A stretch of 63,894 nucleotides of DNA, filler included, from an uncultured bacterium (GTDB taxonomy: Bacteria > CAYJRR01): the NCBI GenBank assembly GCA_964372275.1. It is 4 parts of 4 records of this genome, joined end to end, with 100 filler letters (N's around TTAATTAATTAA, not from the genome) between each part and the next. Parts side by side here need not be neighbours in the genome. Positions count along the whole stretch, not along the records: positions 1 to 19,801 come from CAYJRR010000085.1; 3 more parts are not named here. One strand, 5' to 3'. Below are positions 2,725 through 58,976 of the stretch, piece after piece (position 1 is the stretch's first letter; each line of letters begins with the position of its first letter). A program made the translations under genes and the position numbers. Under the pieces are notes generated by a model. That model saw nothing but the letters and a program-made list of their open reading frames with translations. It was not told where the DNA came from and searched no databases.

Positions 2725-3723
2725 CTACGGCGCCTTCGGGAGCTTGAGCGTCACCGTCGCCCCGCCGCCGTCGTTGGTGGCGGAGATCGATCCGCCGTGC
2801 GCCTCGACGACCGCGCGGGCGAAGGCGAGGTCGAGCTTTCCGCCGGAGCCCCCGCGGACCAGTGCGCCGGCGTCGAAGACGTGCGAGGGGTGTTCGGCGG
2901 GGAAGGCGGGGCCGGTGTCGCGCACCGTCAGGGTGTAGGCGCGGTCGCCTTCGTCGAGCGAGATCGACACCTTCCCGCCCGGGCCGGCCGCCGACGCGCC
3001 GTGGTCGATCACGCCGCGCAGCGCCGACTCCAGCCTCGAGGCGACGGCGACGACGGTGCGCGGCCCGGCGGCGTCGACCTCGAACGCCACCTGGGCGTGC
3101 CGCGGTTCGGCGCGCAACGCCTCCCCGAGTCCGCGGGCCAGCGCCGCGAGGTCGACGACGTCCCGCTCCTCGTCGATCAGCCCCGCCTCGGCGCGCGCCA
3201 GCTCCACGAAGTGGGTCACCGATTCGTCCAGCCGGCGGCTCGCGTCCTGGAACAGCGCGGCGTGGCGGGTGACGCGCGGGTCGTCGCCGGCGCCGCGCGC
3301 CAGCGAGTCGGCGGCGGCGCGGATGGCGGCGATCGGGTTCTTCAGGTCGTGCGCCAGGTCGGAGAAGAGCGATTGGTTGGCGCGCGACCGGCGGCGCAGC
3401 GCCACCAGCAGCGCGTCGAACGAGGAGGCCAGCTCCCCCACCTCGTCGGCGCGGCGCCGCTCGAGCCCGGCCCCCGGTGCGGCGCGCGTCGCCTGCGGGA
3501 CGATCCGCGCGCGCAGCTCGTCGTAGGGGAGCGCCACCGCCCGGCCGTTCCAGCGTCCGACGACGAACCCGGCCAACGCCGCGGCCGCGATCCGCGCGAG
3601 GAACGGCACCCCGAACAGCTCCAACACCAGCGCGGTGGCGAGCGTCGACGCCGCGGTGTCGAGGCAGGCGATCGTGACGCGCAGTTTCAGTGGCCGGGGA
3701 GCCGGACCGAGCACGAGCCCCAT
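2725..3723 (-). CDS. HAMP-domain sensor histidine kinase with degenerate ATPase boxes
   Basis: ATG at 3723, 5 nt after the regulator stop; two TM helices, HAMP (RRADEVGELASSF), H-box AHDLKNP, HATPase-like C-terminus (VEAHGGSI). Confidence 0.85.
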   Translation of the reverse strand: MGLVLGPAPRPLKLRVTIACLDTAASTLATALVLELFGVPFLARIAAAALAGFVVGRWNGRAVALPYDELRARIVPQATRAAPGAGLERRRADEVGELASSFDALLVALRRRSRANQSLFSDLAHDLKNPIAAIRAAADSLARGAGDDPRVTRHAALFQDASRRLDESVTHFVELARAEAGLIDEERDVVDLAALARGLGEALRAEPRHAQVAFEVDAAGPRTVVAVASRLESALRGVIDHGASAAGPGGKVSISLDEGDRAYTLTVRDTGPAFPAEHPSHVFDAGALVRGGSGGKLDLAFARAVVEAHGGSISATNDGGGATVTLKLPKAP

Positions 3724-9720: not shown

Positions 9721-11406
9721 ATGATCCCCCTGCTCGCGTCCATCCTTCTCGCCGCGCCGGCCTCCCACGCGCCCGCGCAGCTCCTCCTCACCCACGCCAA
9801 CGTCGTCACCCTCGATCCGGCGCACCCGCGCGCCGAGGCGATCGCGATCCGCGGTGACACCATCGTCTACGTCGGCGATGCCGCCGGCGCGGAGGCGTTC
9901 GCCGGACCGAAGACCGAGCGCATCGACCTGGCCGGCTCCACCGTCGTTCCGGGACTGGTCGACGCGCACGCGCACGTAGCCTCCCTCGGTGGCGACCTGG
10001 AGAGCCTGCGGCTGAACGGCACGACGAGCTGGGAGGCGGTCGTCGCCGCCGTCGCGGAACGGGTCGCCCGGGCGAAGCCGGGCGAATGGATCGTCGGGCG
10101 CGGCTGGGATCAGAACGACTGGGCGGTGAAGGAGTTCCCGACACACGAGAAGCTCTCGGCCGTTTCGCCGAACAACCCGGTGTTGCTGTCGCGGATCGAC
10201 GGGCACGCCGTCGTCGTCAACGCGCTCGCCCTGCGGACGGGGGGCGTGACCCGCGCGACGGCCGACCCGCCGGGCGGCCGGATCCTGCGCGCGGCCGCGG
10301 CCGGGGAGCCGACGGGGGTGCTGGTCGACGACGCGATCGATCTCGTGGCGAAGCACGTCCCCTCGCCGACGCTCGCGCAGGTGAAGGCGCGGATCCTGCG
10401 CGCGCAGGAGGCCTGCCTCGCGGCGGGGCTCACCGGCATCCACGACATGGGGGTCGGCGCGACGGAACTGGCCGCCTTCGAGGCGCTCGACCGGGAGCGG
10501 AAGCTGAAGCTTCGCGTGTACGCTTTGCTCGACGGCGGCGACCGCTCGCTCTTGAAGAAGCGGTTCGCCCGCGGTCCGGTCGTCGCGAAGGGCAAGGGGC
10601 GGCTGACGGTTCGCGGCTTCAAGCTGTTCGCCGACGGCGCGCTCGGCTCCCGCGGCGCGGCGCTGCTCGCCGACTACGCCGACGAGCCCGGGAATCGCGG
10701 TCTGCTGCGCGACGGAGTCGACGAGATCGCCCGGCGCATCGACGAAGGCCGAAGGGCCGGCTTCCAGGTGGCGGTCCACGCCATCGGGGACGCCGGCAAC
10801 CGAGCGGTGCTCGACGCCATCGAGAGCGTCCGCGACCGCGTCGAGCGGCGTTCCGGCGGGAAGCCGATGTCCGCGGTCGAGCGCCCGCGGATCGAGCACG
10901 TGCAGGTGCTGGCGCCGGAGGATCTGCCGCGCCTGGCGAAGCTCGGGGTCGTCGCTTCGATGCAGCCGACGCACGCCACCTCCGACATGCCGTGGGCCGA
11001 AGCCCGCCTGGGGAAGGAGCGGGTGAAGGGGGCCTATGCCTGGCGCACGCTCCTCGACTCGGGGGCGTCGCTTGCGTTCGGCTCCGACTTCCCGGTCGAG
11101 GGGGTCTCGCCCCTGTGGGGGATCTACGCCGCGGTCACCCGTACCGACCACCAGGGGAGTCCGGCGGGCGGGTGGTTGCCGTCGCAGAAACTCTCCGCGC
11201 TGGAAGCGCTGGCCGGATTCACCACCGGCGCGGCCTACGCCGGTTTCGACGAACGGTCGGGCGGGACGATCGCGGCGGGGCGGCGGGCCGACCTGACGGT
11301 CTTGTCGCGGGACCTCACCGCCGTAGCAGCGGCCGAGATCCTCACCACGGAGGTCCGGATGACCGTCGTCGGAGGGGAGATCGTCTTCCGCCGCGACGCG
11401 AGCTGA
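9721..11406 (+). CDS. Exported YtcJ-like amidohydrolase (Amidohydro_3)
   Basis: PGLVDAHAH, KLFADGALGSRGA, VHAIGD, RIEH, SMQPTH, FGSDFPV; signal peptide. Confidence 0.93.
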   Translation: MIPLLASILLAAPASHAPAQLLLTHANVVTLDPAHPRAEAIAIRGDTIVYVGDAAGAEAFAGPKTERIDLAGSTVVPGLVDAHAHVASLGGDLESLRLNGTTSWEAVVAAVAERVARAKPGEWIVGRGWDQNDWAVKEFPTHEKLSAVSPNNPVLLSRIDGHAVVVNALALRTGGVTRATADPPGGRILRAAAAGEPTGVLVDDAIDLVAKHVPSPTLAQVKARILRAQEACLAAGLTGIHDMGVGATELAAFEALDRERKLKLRVYALLDGGDRSLLKKRFARGPVVAKGKGRLTVRGFKLFADGALGSRGAALLADYADEPGNRGLLRDGVDEIARRIDEGRRAGFQVAVHAIGDAGNRAVLDAIESVRDRVERRSGGKPMSAVERPRIEHVQVLAPEDLPRLAKLGVVASMQPTHATSDMPWAEARLGKERVKGAYAWRTLLDSGASLAFGSDFPVEGVSPLWGIYAAVTRTDHQGSPAGGWLPSQKLSALEALAGFTTGAAYAGFDERSGGTIAAGRRADLTVLSRDLTAVAAAEILTTEVRMTVVGGEIVFRRDAS

Positions 11407-14371: not shown

Positions 14372-14800
14372 TCAGCGGTGGAGGTGGCCGACGTCGGGGG
14401 CGCGTTCGCGGGTGAGGCGGATCGTGCCGAGGCGCTTCACGTTGGCGCAGGCGTCGACCTCCCCCTCGCCGCAGGCCGCGGCGTCGACGACGTAGAAGCG
14501 CGCCGGGCCACCTTGCTTCTCGGGGAGCGGCGCGTCGCCGAGACGGTAGGCGACGACCGCGTTGTCGGCGATCGCGCTTAAGCGGACGCTGATCTCGAAG
14601 GCGCCGTCCTCGGAGCAGAGCGAGGCGTAGGCCGCCGAGGCGGTCGGCGCCACGGCGTCGAGCAGCGCCCGCAGCCGCACCGCGCCGCCGGTCTTGCCGG
14701 GGACCAGGGTCGAGAGGTCGTCGATCTGGCCCGGCAGCGCGCGCAGCTCGGCGAAATCGAACTCGCGCGCCCGCGACACCTCGCCTTCGACCCGGATCAT
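14372..14800 (-). CDS. Molybdopterin-dependent oxidoreductase-like single-domain protein
   Basis: IRVEGEV...FDFAELRALP, VRLRALL, VAYRLGDAPLPEKQGGPARF, CANVK resemble the Oxidored_molyb domain; GAGGG RBS. Confidence 0.7.
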   Translation of the reverse strand: MIRVEGEVSRAREFDFAELRALPGQIDDLSTLVPGKTGGAVRLRALLDAVAPTASAAYASLCSEDGAFEISVRLSAIADNAVVAYRLGDAPLPEKQGGPARFYVVDAAACGEGEVDACANVKRLGTIRLTRERAPDVGHLHR

Positions 14801-14818: not shown

Positions 14819-15391
14819 CTATCCGCGCAGGGCGTAGCTCGTCTTCCGCGCCCACTGCGAGTCGGGCCAACGAGCGACGATCGTCGACCAACGTTCGGTG
14901 CAGTCGGCAAAGACCTTGGAGCGCCGGTAGCGGCTGATCCCCTGCCAGTAGATCGCCTCCGGCGCCCGCTCGGCCGTCCGGCCGCCCGGCGTCGCGTCGG
15001 CGACCGCCTGGAAGAGCCGGTCGGCGTCGTCGTATCGCTTCTCCCCCATCGCCAGGATGGCGCGGCCGAAGTCGAGCTCGACCAGGAACTCCTGCGGCGG
15101 CAGGAATCCGACCTGCACGTGCGCCGGCCGCTCGTCGGCGCCGGCGACGATCAGCCCCGGCAGCCAGCGGGCGTTCATCTTGCGCGGCAGGTCTCCCGCC
15201 TTCGTGCTCTCCAGCTTGCAGGGGACGAACGAATCGCGGAGCCGCTCGATCACCGTGGGGTCGGGGTACGTCACGGTACCCATCTCTTTGCACCCCATTC
15301 AGGTGTGCGCGTAGAGCCAGAGGAAGATCGGAAGGCCGCGCCCCTGCGCCTGCGCCCGCGCCTCTTCCCAGCTTTCGATCCACGGGATCAT
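14819..15391 (-). CDS. Selenocysteine-containing thioredoxin-fold (UxxC) + TPR-like protein, 190 aa
   Basis: GGAGG RBS then ATG 15391: MIPWIESWEEARAQAQGRGLPIFLWLYAHT-TGA(15301..15299)-MGCKEMGTVTYPD in one frame; TGA sits at the first Cys of the CxxC site; cis-Pro WLP and GFLPP; downstream hairpin. Confidence 0.88.
15257..15296 (-). other. Bacterial SECIS-like hairpin of the thioredoxin selenoprotein
   Basis: mRNA GGGUAC-cGUgac-GUACCC upper stem (15264-15281), loop starts 24 nt after UGA with GU; lower GGGGU/ACCCC pairing. Confidence 0.7.
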
Positions 15392-15413
15392 CTCGAACCT
15401 CCGCCGGCGGATC

Positions 15414-16484
15414 CTACTCCGGCGCGGGCGGGTCGGCCACCACCACCGACGCGTGCTCGGCGACGTAGCGCTGCGAGATCCAGCCGTAGCCCGGACCGAA
15501 CGGGTGATCCAGGCCGAAGCTGGCGGCGCCCCAGCTGTTCTTGAAGAGGTAGAAGCCCCGTTCGCGCACAGCGTGTCCGTCGGCGTCGAGGACGATCCTC
15601 CCTTCGCCGTCGCGCACCGGGACCTCGAGGGTGTCGTCCCAGCCGACGATCAGGACGCCGTGCCCGGCCGGATTCCGCTCCGAATCGGCGCGGTCGGCGT
15701 CGTTCGGATAGGTGACGAACCCGGCGCGCCAGTAGTCGCCGTTGAGCGGAAGCCCCGACAGGCCGTGGTTCCAGCTCTGGTAGAAGACCGGCAGCCCGAT
15801 CGTCGCGCCGGACTCGGTCTCCGCCAGGTGCGACTTGATCGCGTTCGGGTGGAGGTATCGCGGCATCGGCAGCTTGAAGCGGGGCGCGGCGAGCGCCTCG
15901 TCCGGCGGATCACCGTTGGTGAAGCAGACGCGGGGCCGGGCGGCGGCGGCCGGATCGCACGCCGGGTCCTGCGCAGGACCCCAGGGGTCGGGTTGGTAGG
16001 GGGCGACCGGCTCCTCGACGATCCCGAACTTCGAGACCGCTTCCAGGTTCACGCCGCTGTGCGACCCCTCGCCGTCGGGGAAGGCGCCGAGCTCGGTCTT
16101 GACCGACCACTGGAGGAACTGTTCCGAGAAGTCGGGGTTCGCCAGACCCCGCTTCTTGTAGAGGCTCTCGACCAGGGCGACGCTGGCGAAGACCGAACAG
16201 ACGCCGCGCCCGCCCTGGTCCTTCACCGGTGTGTCGAAGCGCGCGACGTCGAAGACGGCCGGCAGGATTGCGGGGAGGCTGGTGTCGACCAGCTCGTCGG
16301 CGGTCGGTACGCCGGCGAACAGCGCGTCGAGATCGGACAGCGTCGGGCGATTGTCGGTCGGCGGCTCGACCGGCGGTTCGCTCGGCACCGACGAGACCTC
16401 CGCCGTACGGCAGGCGGCCGAGAGGAACAGCAGAGCGGCCGCGAGGCGGGAGAGGTCGATTCGCGGCGTTCGTTCGTTGCGCAC
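15414..16484 (-). CDS. Papain-like C1 family cysteine peptidase, probable lipoprotein
   Basis: DQGGRGVCSVF, FSEQ, AGHGVLIVGW, FKNSWG; lipobox LSAAC; GTG start at 16484 after AAGGA. Confidence 0.9.
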   Translation of the reverse strand: MRNERTPRIDLSRLAAALLFLSAACRTAEVSSVPSEPPVEPPTDNRPTLSDLDALFAGVPTADELVDTSLPAILPAVFDVARFDTPVKDQGGRGVCSVFASVALVESLYKKRGLANPDFSEQFLQWSVKTELGAFPDGEGSHSGVNLEAVSKFGIVEEPVAPYQPDPWGPAQDPACDPAAAARPRVCFTNGDPPDEALAAPRFKLPMPRYLHPNAIKSHLAETESGATIGLPVFYQSWNHGLSGLPLNGDYWRAGFVTYPNDADRADSERNPAGHGVLIVGWDDTLEVPVRDGEGRIVLDADGHAVRERGFYLFKNSWGAASFGLDHPFGPGYGWISQRYVAEHASVVVADPPAPE

Positions 16485-16509
16485 GGTCGGTCCTTCGGGC
16501 CGTCCGTCG

Positions 16510-16525
16510 AGCAATCCGGATGCCA
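16510..16525 (-). promoter_or_regulatory. Sigma54 (-24/-12) promoter of the C1 peptidase unit
   Basis: Minus strand TGGCATCCGGATTGCT, GG-N10-GC, 25 nt before the GTG. Confidence 0.75.
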
Positions 16526-16733
16526 GCGAAGCCCGCCGACCCGGTCGTGCAACTAGCGGCGATCGCAGCGCTTCCCGATGCGTCTCGGCGTTCGCGGCGC
16601 CCCCGTCCGTCCGTCCCCTGGGTTCGGGAGGTCCCCCTGTCCCGTCCGTAGACCCGCGGCCGGTCGAGAAGTGGTGCGGTACGGCACCGCGGACAGGCTA
16701 GACTCCGTCGCCCCAAGAAGGAGTAACGGATCG

Positions 16734-17015
16734 ATGGCGCGAACGGTGAAGTGCGCGAAGCTGGGCAAGGAGCTGCCGGGTCTCGACTGGCAGCCGTATC
16801 CGGGGGAGCTCGGGAAGAAGATCTACGAGAACGTCTCGGAGCAGGCGTTCCAGATGTGGCTCGAGCAGGCGAAGCTGATCATCAACGAGTACCGCCTGAA
16901 CCTCGCCGATCCGGCCGCCCAGAAGATGCTCTACGAGCAGGCGGAGAAGTTCTTCTTCGGAGAGGGGGCGCAGATGCCCCCCGACTACGTCCCGCAGGGG
17001 GCGGCCAAGAAGTAG
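16734..17015 (+). CDS. yggX: Fe(II)-trafficking / oxidative damage protection protein
   Basis: MARTVKCAKLGKELPGL..PYPGELGKKIYENVS...W...IINEYRLNLADP...FFF; AAGGAG RBS. Confidence 0.95.
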   Translation: MARTVKCAKLGKELPGLDWQPYPGELGKKIYENVSEQAFQMWLEQAKLIINEYRLNLADPAAQKMLYEQAEKFFFGEGAQMPPDYVPQGAAKK

Positions 17016-19801: not shown

Positions 19802-19901
19802 NNNNNNNNNNNNNNNNNNNNNNNNNNNNNNNNNNNNNNNNNNNNTTAATTAATTAANNNNNNNNNNNNNNNNNNNNNNNNNNNNNNNNNNNNNNNNNNN
19901 N
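19802..19901. other. Artificial contig linker
   Basis: N44-TTAATTAATTAA-N44 (stops in all six frames). Confidence 0.99.
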
Positions 19902-26651: not shown

Positions 26652-27951
26652 ATGCGCGCGCTCGTCACGTTCACGCTTCTCCTGTTGTCGGTGATCGTCC
26701 CCGGCTGCCAGGCGGCCCAGTCCGGCGCCGGGGCGCCGTTGTCGATGGTCCTCGACCTCGCCAACGTCGCCGGGACGCTCTACACCAACGGCGTCGTCGA
26801 GTTGTGTGCCGTCGCCTACGGCGCGACGCCGAAGACGATCGACTTCATTCTCGACGGGGAGCTGCTCGCGTCGACCGAGATCCCGTTCTGCTATGCGTGG
26901 GACAGCACGTCGACGCCCGAGGGGGCGCATCTGCTGTTGGTGCGGGGGCAGATCGGCGAGGAGGTGATCGAGAGCGCCGCGATCACGGTGATCGTCGATC
27001 GCACGCGTCCGACCGTCACGCTCCGCACGCCGATCCCCAACGCGGTGAACGTCTCGGTCCAGGAGGCGATCCGCATCGAGTTCGACGAGCCTCTCCATCC
27101 CGCCTCCCTGACGCAGGACGCGGTGATCCTCTCGGGGTCGGGTTCGGTGGCCCTCGCCAAGACCCTGACGTTGACCGAGGACGGGCAGGGTTTCGTGATC
27201 GCCCCCACCGCCGTTCCTCCGCTCCCGACCACCCTTCGCGTCGACCTCTCCGACGGCATCACCGATCTCGCGGGGAATCCGGTCGACGTCGGCGGCACCG
27301 TCTGGTCGTTCACCCTGCCCGCATGGGTCCAGGTCGGTCAGAAGGCGAACAGCGCCGCCCGCAACCTGGTCAACACCAGCGCCTGCCCCGTCGCCGTGGT
27401 CGGCACGACGGGGCAGTTCGTGTTGGCGTGCGTGGANNNNNNNNNNNNNNNNNNNNNNNNNNNNNNNNNNNNNNNNNNNNNNNNNNNNNNNNNNNNNNNN
27501 NNNNNNNNNNNNNNNNNNNNNNNNNNNNNNNNNNNNGCTCGACACCGCCGGCAATCCGGTGGTCGCGTGGGAGGAACCGGATACGACCGTCACCAACGTC
27601 TACGTCAAACGTTGGACCGGGACGGCGTTCGTCTCGGTCGGTGGCCCGATCCAGGAGCAGCTCGGAACGACGAACGCCACCGTTTCGAGAGTCGTCGTCG
27701 ATCCCAAGACCAACTTCCCGATCGTGGCCTGGTTGGAGGGGGACGGCAGCAGCTCCGAGGTGTTCGTCAAGCGGTGGGACGGATCGAACTGGGGGCCGAC
27801 CGAGACGATCAAGCCGACGATCAACAACGGCGTGCTGAGCTTCCAGCCGTTCATGACGATCGGCAAGACGAAGACCCCGGTCTTGAGCTTCATCGAGCAG
27901 GATCCGACCGGGACCACCTTCAGCGTCTACGTGCAGCAGATGAACCGCTGA
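26652..27951 (+). CDS. Ig-like (Big_5-type) domain lipoprotein with C-terminal propeller-like repeats; interrupted by scaffold gap
   Basis: Lipobox IVPGC; VDRTRPTV...IRIEFDEPL.PAS...ITDLAGN; after the gap NPVVAWEE...SVYVQQMNR matches the downstream paralog. Confidence 0.8.
27437..27536. other. Scaffold gap (100 N)
   Basis: N run inside a gene. Confidence 0.99.
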
Positions 27952-36686: not shown

Positions 36687-36883
36687 CGGCCCCCGAGCAT
36701 ACCGTCGTCGGGGGCACCGCTGCGACCGNNNNNNNNNNNNNNNNNNNNNNNNNNNNNNNNNNNNNNNNNNNNNNNNNNNNNNNNNNNNNNNNNNNNNNNN
36801 NNNNNNNNNNNNNNNNNNNNNNNNNNNNGTCGACGCGTCATCGGCCCCCGAGCATACCGTCGTCGGGGGCACCGCTGCGACCG
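36674..36883. other. Scaffold gap flanked by an identical 55-bp sequence (assembly overlap artefact)
   Basis: 36674-36728 equals 36829-36883 on either side of 100 N. Confidence 0.9.
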
Positions 36884-39649: not shown

Positions 39650-39749
39650 NNNNNNNNNNNNNNNNNNNNNNNNNNNNNNNNNNNNNNNNNNNNTTAATTA
39701 ATTAANNNNNNNNNNNNNNNNNNNNNNNNNNNNNNNNNNNNNNNNNNNN
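39650..39749. other. Artificial contig linker
   Basis: N44-TTAATTAATTAA-N44. Confidence 0.99.
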
Positions 39750-39923
<174 letters not shown>

Positions 39924-58876: not shown

Positions 58877-58976
58877 NNNNNNNNNNNNNNNNNNNNNNNN
58901 NNNNNNNNNNNNNNNNNNNNTTAATTAATTAANNNNNNNNNNNNNNNNNNNNNNNNNNNNNNNNNNNNNNNNNNNN
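58877..58976. other. Artificial contig linker
   Basis: N44-TTAATTAATTAA-N44. Confidence 0.99.

Follow-up and report, generated by a model that had tools for sequence, protein, structure and literature searches.

A predicted selenoprotein joining a thioredoxin fold to a TPR-like tail, with a candidate SECIS inside its coding region

Thioredoxin-fold selenoproteins with a UxxC motif, in which U is selenocysteine (Sec), and with a selenocysteine insertion sequence (SECIS) in the coding region are well known. Here we describe a gene on the minus strand of a 63.9-kb stretch of DNA from an uncultured bacterium (GenBank assembly GCA_964372275.1; the whole stretch is called the window below). The gene has a TGA in frame at codon 31, a hairpin shortly past it, and a product that would join a thioredoxin fold to a tail resembling tetratricopeptide repeats (TPR). 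Judged from comparison of sequences, it very probably encodes a genuine selenoprotein that uses this hairpin as its SECIS. The product would be a real, unannotated selenoprotein of ordinary kind, and the finding changes no principle. The coordinates of the gene, its parts and its neighbours are collected in Table 1.

Like the known thioredoxin-fold selenoproteins, the product would carry Sec in a redox motif and its SECIS in the coding region, and it matches their models weakly, at the level of the domain. The motifs of those models, CxxU, VPGU and UxxxxU, differ from the U-M-G-C found here. Scored against the curated NCBIfam selenoprotein models, the product (P0001) reaches none at its cut-off; the values are 27.6 against 805 for TsoB (NF045694), 23.6 against 300 for Trx7/PDZ (NF041199) and 20.6 against 275 for VPGUxxT (NF041382/3). 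The other 50 members of A5, a 51-row alignment of Sec and cysteine (Cys) forms, also match these models weakly (best E 9.3e-16, to TsoB; for these members E-values are given, without comparison to the cut-offs). A 'Thiol:disulfide interchange protein' selenoprotein family (PF13098, UxxC) stands in the Kryukov and Gladyshev lists, with WP_011366075.1 as representative. The product was compared with it through its listing and through PF13098, where the score is borderline (27.3 bits against a cut-off of 27).

Two 'thiol-disulfide isomerase-like thioredoxin' Sec candidates without SECIS appear in table S9 of a Planctomycetes genome paper (PMC4807772), and their kinship to the present family is not decidable from the table. 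A 2026 review gives the known and predicted prokaryotic selenoprotein families in its Table 1; in the portion of its text that is available, the words 'TPR' and 'tetratricopeptide' are absent (PMC13188914). A search of the full-text literature returned no paper describing a thioredoxin–TPR selenoprotein.

The fold is assigned as follows. Pfam places residues 4–64 in Thioredoxin_7 (PF13899; 35.4 bits, above the cut-off of 27), with weaker matches to Thioredoxin_2 and Thioredox_DsbH. An AlphaFold2 (AF2) model built on A5 is confident (predicted local distance difference test 97.6, predicted TM-score 0.92) and has a thioredoxin fold extending from residue 1 to about residue 98, with U31 immediately before a helix at 32–41. 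In the tail, the model has five helices, at residues 99–116, 120–132, 143–158, 162–174 and 179–189. In a profile search of the PDB, the thioredoxin part is nearest to 2kuc and DsbD-gamma (E 2e-17 to 2e-16), and residues 108–185 of the tail match YbgF (2xev, E 2.8e-15) and CpoB (6g5s, E 2.5e-11). The top Foldseek match of the model is E. coli YbbN/CnoX (E 3.2e-6 over 195 aligned columns). The thioredoxin fold with a TPR-like tail, which had been proposed from the sequence alone, is thus backed by Pfam, by the PDB profile matches and by a confident model. Two tail motifs, APEA-YW-G and P-S-WA, are strongly conserved in the Sec and Cys clades alike.

The product shares with DsbD-gamma and DsbH a thioredoxin fold of the Thioredoxin_7/Thioredox_DsbH type. 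Those domains are periplasmic, use Cys, and stand alone or are fused to a membrane domain, whereas the product lacks a signal peptide, would have Sec where they have their first Cys, and bears the TPR-like tail. Since the thioredoxin fold follows immediately on the ATG, no signal peptide should be present and the protein should be cytoplasmic. Full-length DsbD, a membrane core with two periplasmic domains, is matched only in its gamma-domain region (NF001419; 27.9 bits against a cut-off of 330). CnoX has a holdase and mixed-disulfide role. CnoX/YbbN (3qou from E. coli, 3qdn from Salmonella) has the same order of parts as the product, with TPR-type helices after a cytoplasmic thioredoxin domain, but it is about 285 residues long with a longer TPR region, and we cite no Sec form of it. 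Within the tail, the YbgF/CpoB TPR repeats are matched (TIGR02795; NCBIfam E 4.3e-7), although the product falls short of the YbgF/CpoB equivalog level (TIGR02795, NF008068; 30.5 bits against a cut-off of 90.1). YbgF/CpoB is periplasmic and combines a coiled coil with TPR, whereas the product has neither signal peptide nor N-terminal coiled coil and is fused to a thioredoxin fold.

Conservation of the in-frame TGA

The open reading frame (ORF) listed for this locus, 14819..15298 on the minus strand, encodes 159 residues and begins MGC. The same frame runs 5′ through one TGA to an ATG. Translated with TGA as U, the product has 190 residues and reads MIPWIESWEEARAQAQGRGLPIFLWLYAHT-U-MGC and onward. 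The sequence-only reading had claimed this extension to a GGAGG-preceded ATG, all elements of which are present in the sequence. It had also claimed a restored thioredoxin N-terminus with a U-M-G-C site, both of which the read-through translation displays, and a GGGUAC/GUACCC hairpin 24 nucleotides (nt) downstream. The hairpin is there, and the distance can be made precise; the stem begins 17 nt past the UGA and the loop at the 24th nt, which is a spacing of 23 nt. The GC content of third codon positions (GC3) is 0.90 in the 40 codons 5′ of the TGA and equally 0.90 in the 40 codons 3′ of it. Cys34, the fourth residue of the motif, is near-invariant (at least 90%) in A5.

A check of the TGA in independent sequence data had been called for, and assemblies from two other studies contain the TGA with no variant. 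Contigs from three other runs cover the site, one of which may be the window's own source sample; those of X2 and X3, runs from two studies, are identical to the window across the TGA. Because these contigs carry the TGA, it is, as far as assembled sequence can tell, not an assembly error.

A word-based search of 5.8 billion proteins gave 44 close relatives. All 44 are short, with 119–164 residues and a query coverage of at most 83%, and the 20 that were aligned all begin at MGC or at a later Met, directly past the TGA column. A cut made by gene callers at one codon throughout the family would be expected to leave just this pattern of short relatives. At the DNA level, 22 loci were fetched, of which two lie on genome contigs and 20 on contigs of metagenomes. 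The N-terminus is covered in 17 (two genome, 15 metagenome), the other five (L018–L022) matching the C-terminal part only and being uninformative. TGA stands at the same column in 17/17, within a motif U-[LMGTP]-[GA]-C; identities range between 28% and 61%, and the upstream peptide is kept in these loci.

A profile search of 401 Planctomycetota genomes extends the pattern. At E<=1e-28 there are 73 matches in 63 genomes; six are thioredoxin domains of larger proteins and 67 are of the family type. One in-frame TGA is found in 66 of these 67, and the remaining match begins past that column. The carriers amount to 57 of the 401 genomes (about 14% of the species sampled), with up to three copies each. 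Among the 20 Planctomycetota loci fetched, U-x-[GAS]-C occurs at the expected place in 19; the locus missed by the pattern is L069, which has an extra TAA. Elsewhere the family is sporadic, being found in the window and in one of 301 Myxococcota genomes, the metagenome-assembled genome (MAG) that holds locus L002 (G002), where the full-length match contains one TGA. All other Myxococcota matches listed reach only the thioredoxin domain of larger proteins.

Some Planctomycetota genomes hold several copies, each with its own in-frame TGA. G536 has three; G452 has a tandem pair (C61:65118-66343; L074), with the hairpin kept in both copies; and G001, a Planctomycetales MAG with locus L001, has a second copy at C100:1881-2408.

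HMMER, run exhaustively against 1.84 billion representatives, returned 1815 matches at E<=1e-3, and 193 homologues were aligned to the family profile for a count of states at column 31. As many as 129 start past that column, and for 99 of these the start is exactly column 32 or 37. Fifty are full-length and have C..C at the positions of U31..C34, with C-x-G-C aligning to U-x-G-C. Among the other states are C..S (5), S..C (4) and Trp (1). The expectation that residue 31 would align with TGA or Cys is therefore borne out, by TGA in the 17 loci and C..C in 50 of the 193 homologues, with one Trp and 129 records cut just past the column. On these alignments, TGA and Cys form a classical Sec/Cys pair.

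In a quick, unfinished tree, which is compatible with a single origin, the Sec forms fall into about four groups set among the Cys forms; we take the tree as a hint only. Since all Sec groups in this tree share the same hairpin, it is plausible that Sec is ancestral and was later replaced by Cys repeatedly.

The hairpin as a candidate SECIS

The bacterial SECIS (bSECIS) consensus, as given in the 2026 review, has a loop of 3–9 nt on a stem of 4–16 bp. Within the first two nucleotides of the loop there is G, in most cases with G or U after it; the UGA-to-loop distance is 16–37 nt, and the minimum free energy (MFE) is at most −7.5 kcal/mol (PMC13188914). The hairpin in the window has a 6-nt loop, CGUGAC, whose second and third nucleotides are G and U, on a 6-bp stem. 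The UGA-to-loop distance is 23 nt, and the 22-nt hairpin has an MFE of −8.8 kcal/mol. It therefore falls within every bound of this consensus (PMC13188914).

In a shuffle test of the 22-nt hairpin, 3 of 200 shuffles fold as well. Because the sequence is 70.7% GC, a hairpin seen in a single sequence is weak evidence, and it is the comparative data that carry the case. These come from 35 distinct sequences. Seventeen are the rows of alignment A3, which holds the window and 16 fetched loci, L009 having been dropped as identical to L008. The other 18 are Planctomycetota rows, from which L061 (= L001) and L073 (= L014) were dropped as duplicates. Across six pairs and 35 sequences, 210 of 210 cells are standard pairs. 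Three of the six pairs vary on both sides (13 cells), and the covariation score is reached by 0 of 500 shuffles. When the partners are slid by one to three columns, 17–55% of cells are paired. The stem is kept in AT-rich genes of the family, where the loop is AGUUUC, and in a divergent clade it is lengthened to 7–9 bp around a loop of 4 nt. The reading of the hairpin as a SECIS, first made from one sequence, thus agrees with the published constraints and with covariation in the 35 sequences.

The hairpin also codes for protein. In the window its codons specify part of M-G-T-V-T-Y-P, and in the family it encodes the conserved peptide [DG]-[TA]-V-[TS]-Y-P. Codon choice within the stem departs from that elsewhere in the same genes. 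At position +7, Asp is GAT in 26/26 cases (38% elsewhere) and Gly is GGT in 7/7 (16% elsewhere); at +10, Thr is ACG in 26/26 (34% elsewhere) and Ser is TCG in 9/9 (19% elsewhere). The third base of the stem Tyr tracks its partner on the other arm, being TAC with GGT in 7/7 and TAT with GAT in 24/24. Compensation from arm to arm is thus seen in Asp/Tyr-TAT as against Gly/Tyr-TAC, and the amino-acid changes in the stem, Ala/His and Glu-Ala/Leu, are likewise compensatory in the RNA. Since synonymous sites are forced, the Tyr third base follows its partner, and the changes compensate, the comparison of sequences indicates that selection acts on the RNA beyond selection on the protein.

Decoding machinery, mechanism and rival explanations

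Components of the machinery for Sec are present in genomes that carry the family. G001 has matches to selB (366 bits), selA (541) and selD (351), and a tRNA-Sec (75 bits). The Myxococcales MAG G002 (3.6 Mb) has selA and selB. Over the 401 Planctomycetota genomes, selB (E<=1e-60) is found in 285, and it is enriched in carriers of the family, with 53/57 against 232/344 in non-carriers (odds ratio 6.4, Fisher p 2.7e-5). All four carriers that lack a selB match have selA at more than 530 bits, so that selB or selA is present in 57/57.

The selD match of G001 (C237:11766-12689) itself has one in-frame TGA, and the same contig carries the tRNA-Sec at 3031-3124. Because of this TGA, SelD of G001 is, from its sequence, probably a selenoprotein as well.

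We propose that decoding and catalysis proceed as follows. During translation, the hairpin 17 nt past UGA-31 would act as a bacterial SECIS and recruit SelB with Sec-tRNA(Sec), and UGA would be decoded as selenocysteine, not as a stop. From the fold and the motif, the selenolate of Sec31 would attack a client disulfide or another oxidised sulfur or selenium centre. Cys34 would then resolve the mixed intermediate, giving a selenenylsulfide that would be recycled by a cellular reductant. By analogy of architecture with the thioredoxin-plus-TPR chaperedoxin CnoX/YbbN, the TPR-like tail may dock a client or a partner. We infer that the product is a cytoplasmic selenol/thiol-disulfide reductase, possibly CnoX-like. 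A specific CnoX-like role in client handling is a tentative suggestion and somewhat doubtful.

Several observations weigh against parts of this interpretation. The window contains no tRNA gene and no Rfam match within its 63.9 kb, and in G002 selD and tRNA-Sec were not found above the cut-offs. Taken in contexts of 60 and 76 nt, the hairpin is ordinary in stability for a sequence of 70.7% GC (z = −0.85 and −0.47). The hairpin comparison covers the DNA of Sec forms only. Since a TYP-like motif is present in the Cys homologues too, part of the nucleotide conservation of the hairpin reflects selection on the protein. As to function, no conserved operon partner emerges across 36 loci, in which only the gene itself and its shadow ORFs form a broad cluster. 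The whole-protein superposition on YbbN is weak (TMq 0.43, root-mean-square deviation 11.9, 14% identity), the domains being arranged differently.

Two other accounts dispense with Sec. One takes the TGA as a true stop, with a protein of about 155–159 residues starting from Met32 or Met37 and the upstream 30 codons left as untranslated sequence, a leader peptide or the remnant of a broken gene. All 44 close database records are annotated in this way, a Met does stand immediately past the TGA in the window, and TGA is the ordinary stop codon of many family members (L001, L003, L004). Yet at identities as low as 28% those 30 codons are still conserved as protein, W4 and the P-[IV]-F-L strand included, and they have the GC3 of 0.90 given above. 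In the model they form strand 1 and helix 1 of the thioredoxin fold, and a cut at the TGA would land precisely in the active site. A stop at one column in 66 of the 67 genes in a phylum does not fit decay, and in L001–L012 the residue after U is Leu or Thr, which offers no start codon there. We consider this account extremely improbable. The use of TGA as terminator tells in turn against the other account, in which a near-cognate or suppressor tRNA, or a local change of code, would let UGA specify Cys or Trp and the hairpin would be a generic stimulator of read-through. Several members of the family end at TGA, so the code is not reassigned. One database homologue does have Trp at the column, but the residue aligned in the 50 full-length homologues is the redox Cys of C-x-G-C. 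In loop, spacing and energy the hairpin agrees with the SelB-type bSECIS model, and every one of the 57 carrier genomes has selB or selA. Reading as Cys or Trp is thus very unlikely, though a shade less so than a true stop.

A third account accepts the selenoprotein and differs on what it does, assigning it to peroxide detoxification or to the binding of a soft metal or metalloid, with the tail as a structural cap or a module for oligomerisation. Many UxxC and CxxU selenoproteins of unknown role are tabulated beside metal-handling ones in the 2026 review (PMC13188914), and the want of a conserved partner gene leaves nothing that points to a defined client. On the other side, DsbD-gamma, DsbH and a domain related to cytochrome c biogenesis, the structures nearest to the thioredoxin part, belong to the electron-transfer disulfide reductases. 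The surface-type tail motifs are conserved in both clades, which suggests a conserved interaction, and YbbN, a chaperedoxin, is the one solved protein whose alignment extends over both domains. We regard this functional alternative as unlikely, but it deserves far more weight than either account without Sec.

Gene neighbourhood and meaning of the family

Table 1. Features of the predicted selenoprotein gene and of neighbouring genes; positions count along the window.
Feature	Positions	Strand	Description	Basis
Predicted selenoprotein coding sequence	14819..15391	(-)	190 residues + TAG stop at 14821..14819; Sec = codon 31	TGA=U translation
Putative Shine-Dalgarno-like GGAGG	15398..15402	(-)	6 nt 5' of ATG 15391..15389	Read from sequence
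In-frame TGA, codon 31, proposed Sec codon	15299..15301	(-)	First position of U-M-G-C	
TGC codon, Cys34	15290..15292	(-)	Proposed resolving Cys of UxxC	Alignment A5
SECIS-like hairpin	15264..15281	(-)	5' arm GGGUAC 15281..15276; loop CGUGAC 15275..15270; 3' arm GUACCC 15269..15264	
Thioredoxin-fold domain (Thioredoxin_7 / DsbD-gamma / DsbH type)	15098..15391	(-)	Residues 1 to ~98	
C-terminal five-helix TPR-like domain	14822..15097	(-)	Residues 99-190, YbgF/CpoB-like	AF2 model and PDB profile
142-residue protein, partial molybdopterin-oxidoreductase domain	14372..14800	(-)	18 nt past selenoprotein stop	PF00174, E 9.4e-11
366-residue papain-family (C1) peptidase-like protein	15414..16514	(-)	Ends 22 nt before ATG	PF00112, E 7.8e-7
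145-residue protein, Bacterial Fe(2+) trafficking domain	16578-17015	(+)	Divergent from peptidase/selenoprotein row	PF04362, E 5.8e-38
Amidohydro_3 gene	9721-11406	(+)	3.4 kb from selenoprotein gene, opposite strand	PF07969, E 5e-107

The selenoprotein gene and the downstream gene at 14372..14800 are possibly co-transcribed. The product of the latter matches only positions 74–148 of the 169 in the PF00174 profile, that is, the middle to C-terminal part. A PF00174 neighbour recurs only in the metagenome contig L004 (828–1256, 66% identity) and is absent beside the gene in the other loci; a PF00112 homologue is likewise not found beside the gene in other loci. An Amidohydro_3 gene lies directly upstream and on the same strand in L002 (2259–3938) and L013 (2–1633). 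Its proximity in the window may be a remnant of shared regional ancestry with no functional link.

A second selenoprotein in the window was sought and rejected. Apart from 15301, the strict GC3 filter on the TGAs of the window passes one position, 39921, which is an ordinary gene boundary of the lysS/lolE type. The TGA at 39921-39923 (+) lies between flanks that both have coding-type GC3; one gene stops there, and the next gene starts in the same frame. Judged by their peptides, these two genes would be lysS-like and then LolC/E-like. A looser filter on motifs gives 22 candidates, and all but 15301 resemble off-frame noise rich in Arg, Ser and Pro. The window contains 464 N in eight runs (masked), among them 19802-19901, 27437-27536, 36729-36828, 39650-39749 and 58877-58976, and a pair of N runs breaks the lysyl-tRNA-synthetase-like gene that ends at 39923.

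What would the gene mean for its family? The active site is cut in the database records (44/44 close relatives; 129/193 homologues). The redox domain is thereby invisible, and the family is filed as hypothetical or as 'TolA-binding protein', the label that JGI gives to the shortened homologues. Hundreds of records would be put right by a profile that permits U in column 31. It is tempting to see in the gene the first representative of an uncatalogued family of cytoplasmic thioredoxin–TPR 'seleno-chaperedoxins' in which Sec is almost obligate and ancestral and the SECIS is written into a peptide motif; in this full form the proposal is possible but on balance improbable. If Sec is ancestral, the Cys forms would have been derived by repeated replacement, the opposite of the usual assumption. 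The compact and highly conserved 18-nt SECIS would be of use in studies of recoding, and with a Sec version of a thioredoxin-plus-TPR protein one could naturally test what a client-handling redox chaperone gains from selenium. For the Planctomycetota, a phylum whose selenoproteome is little described, the family would add a widespread selenoprotein.

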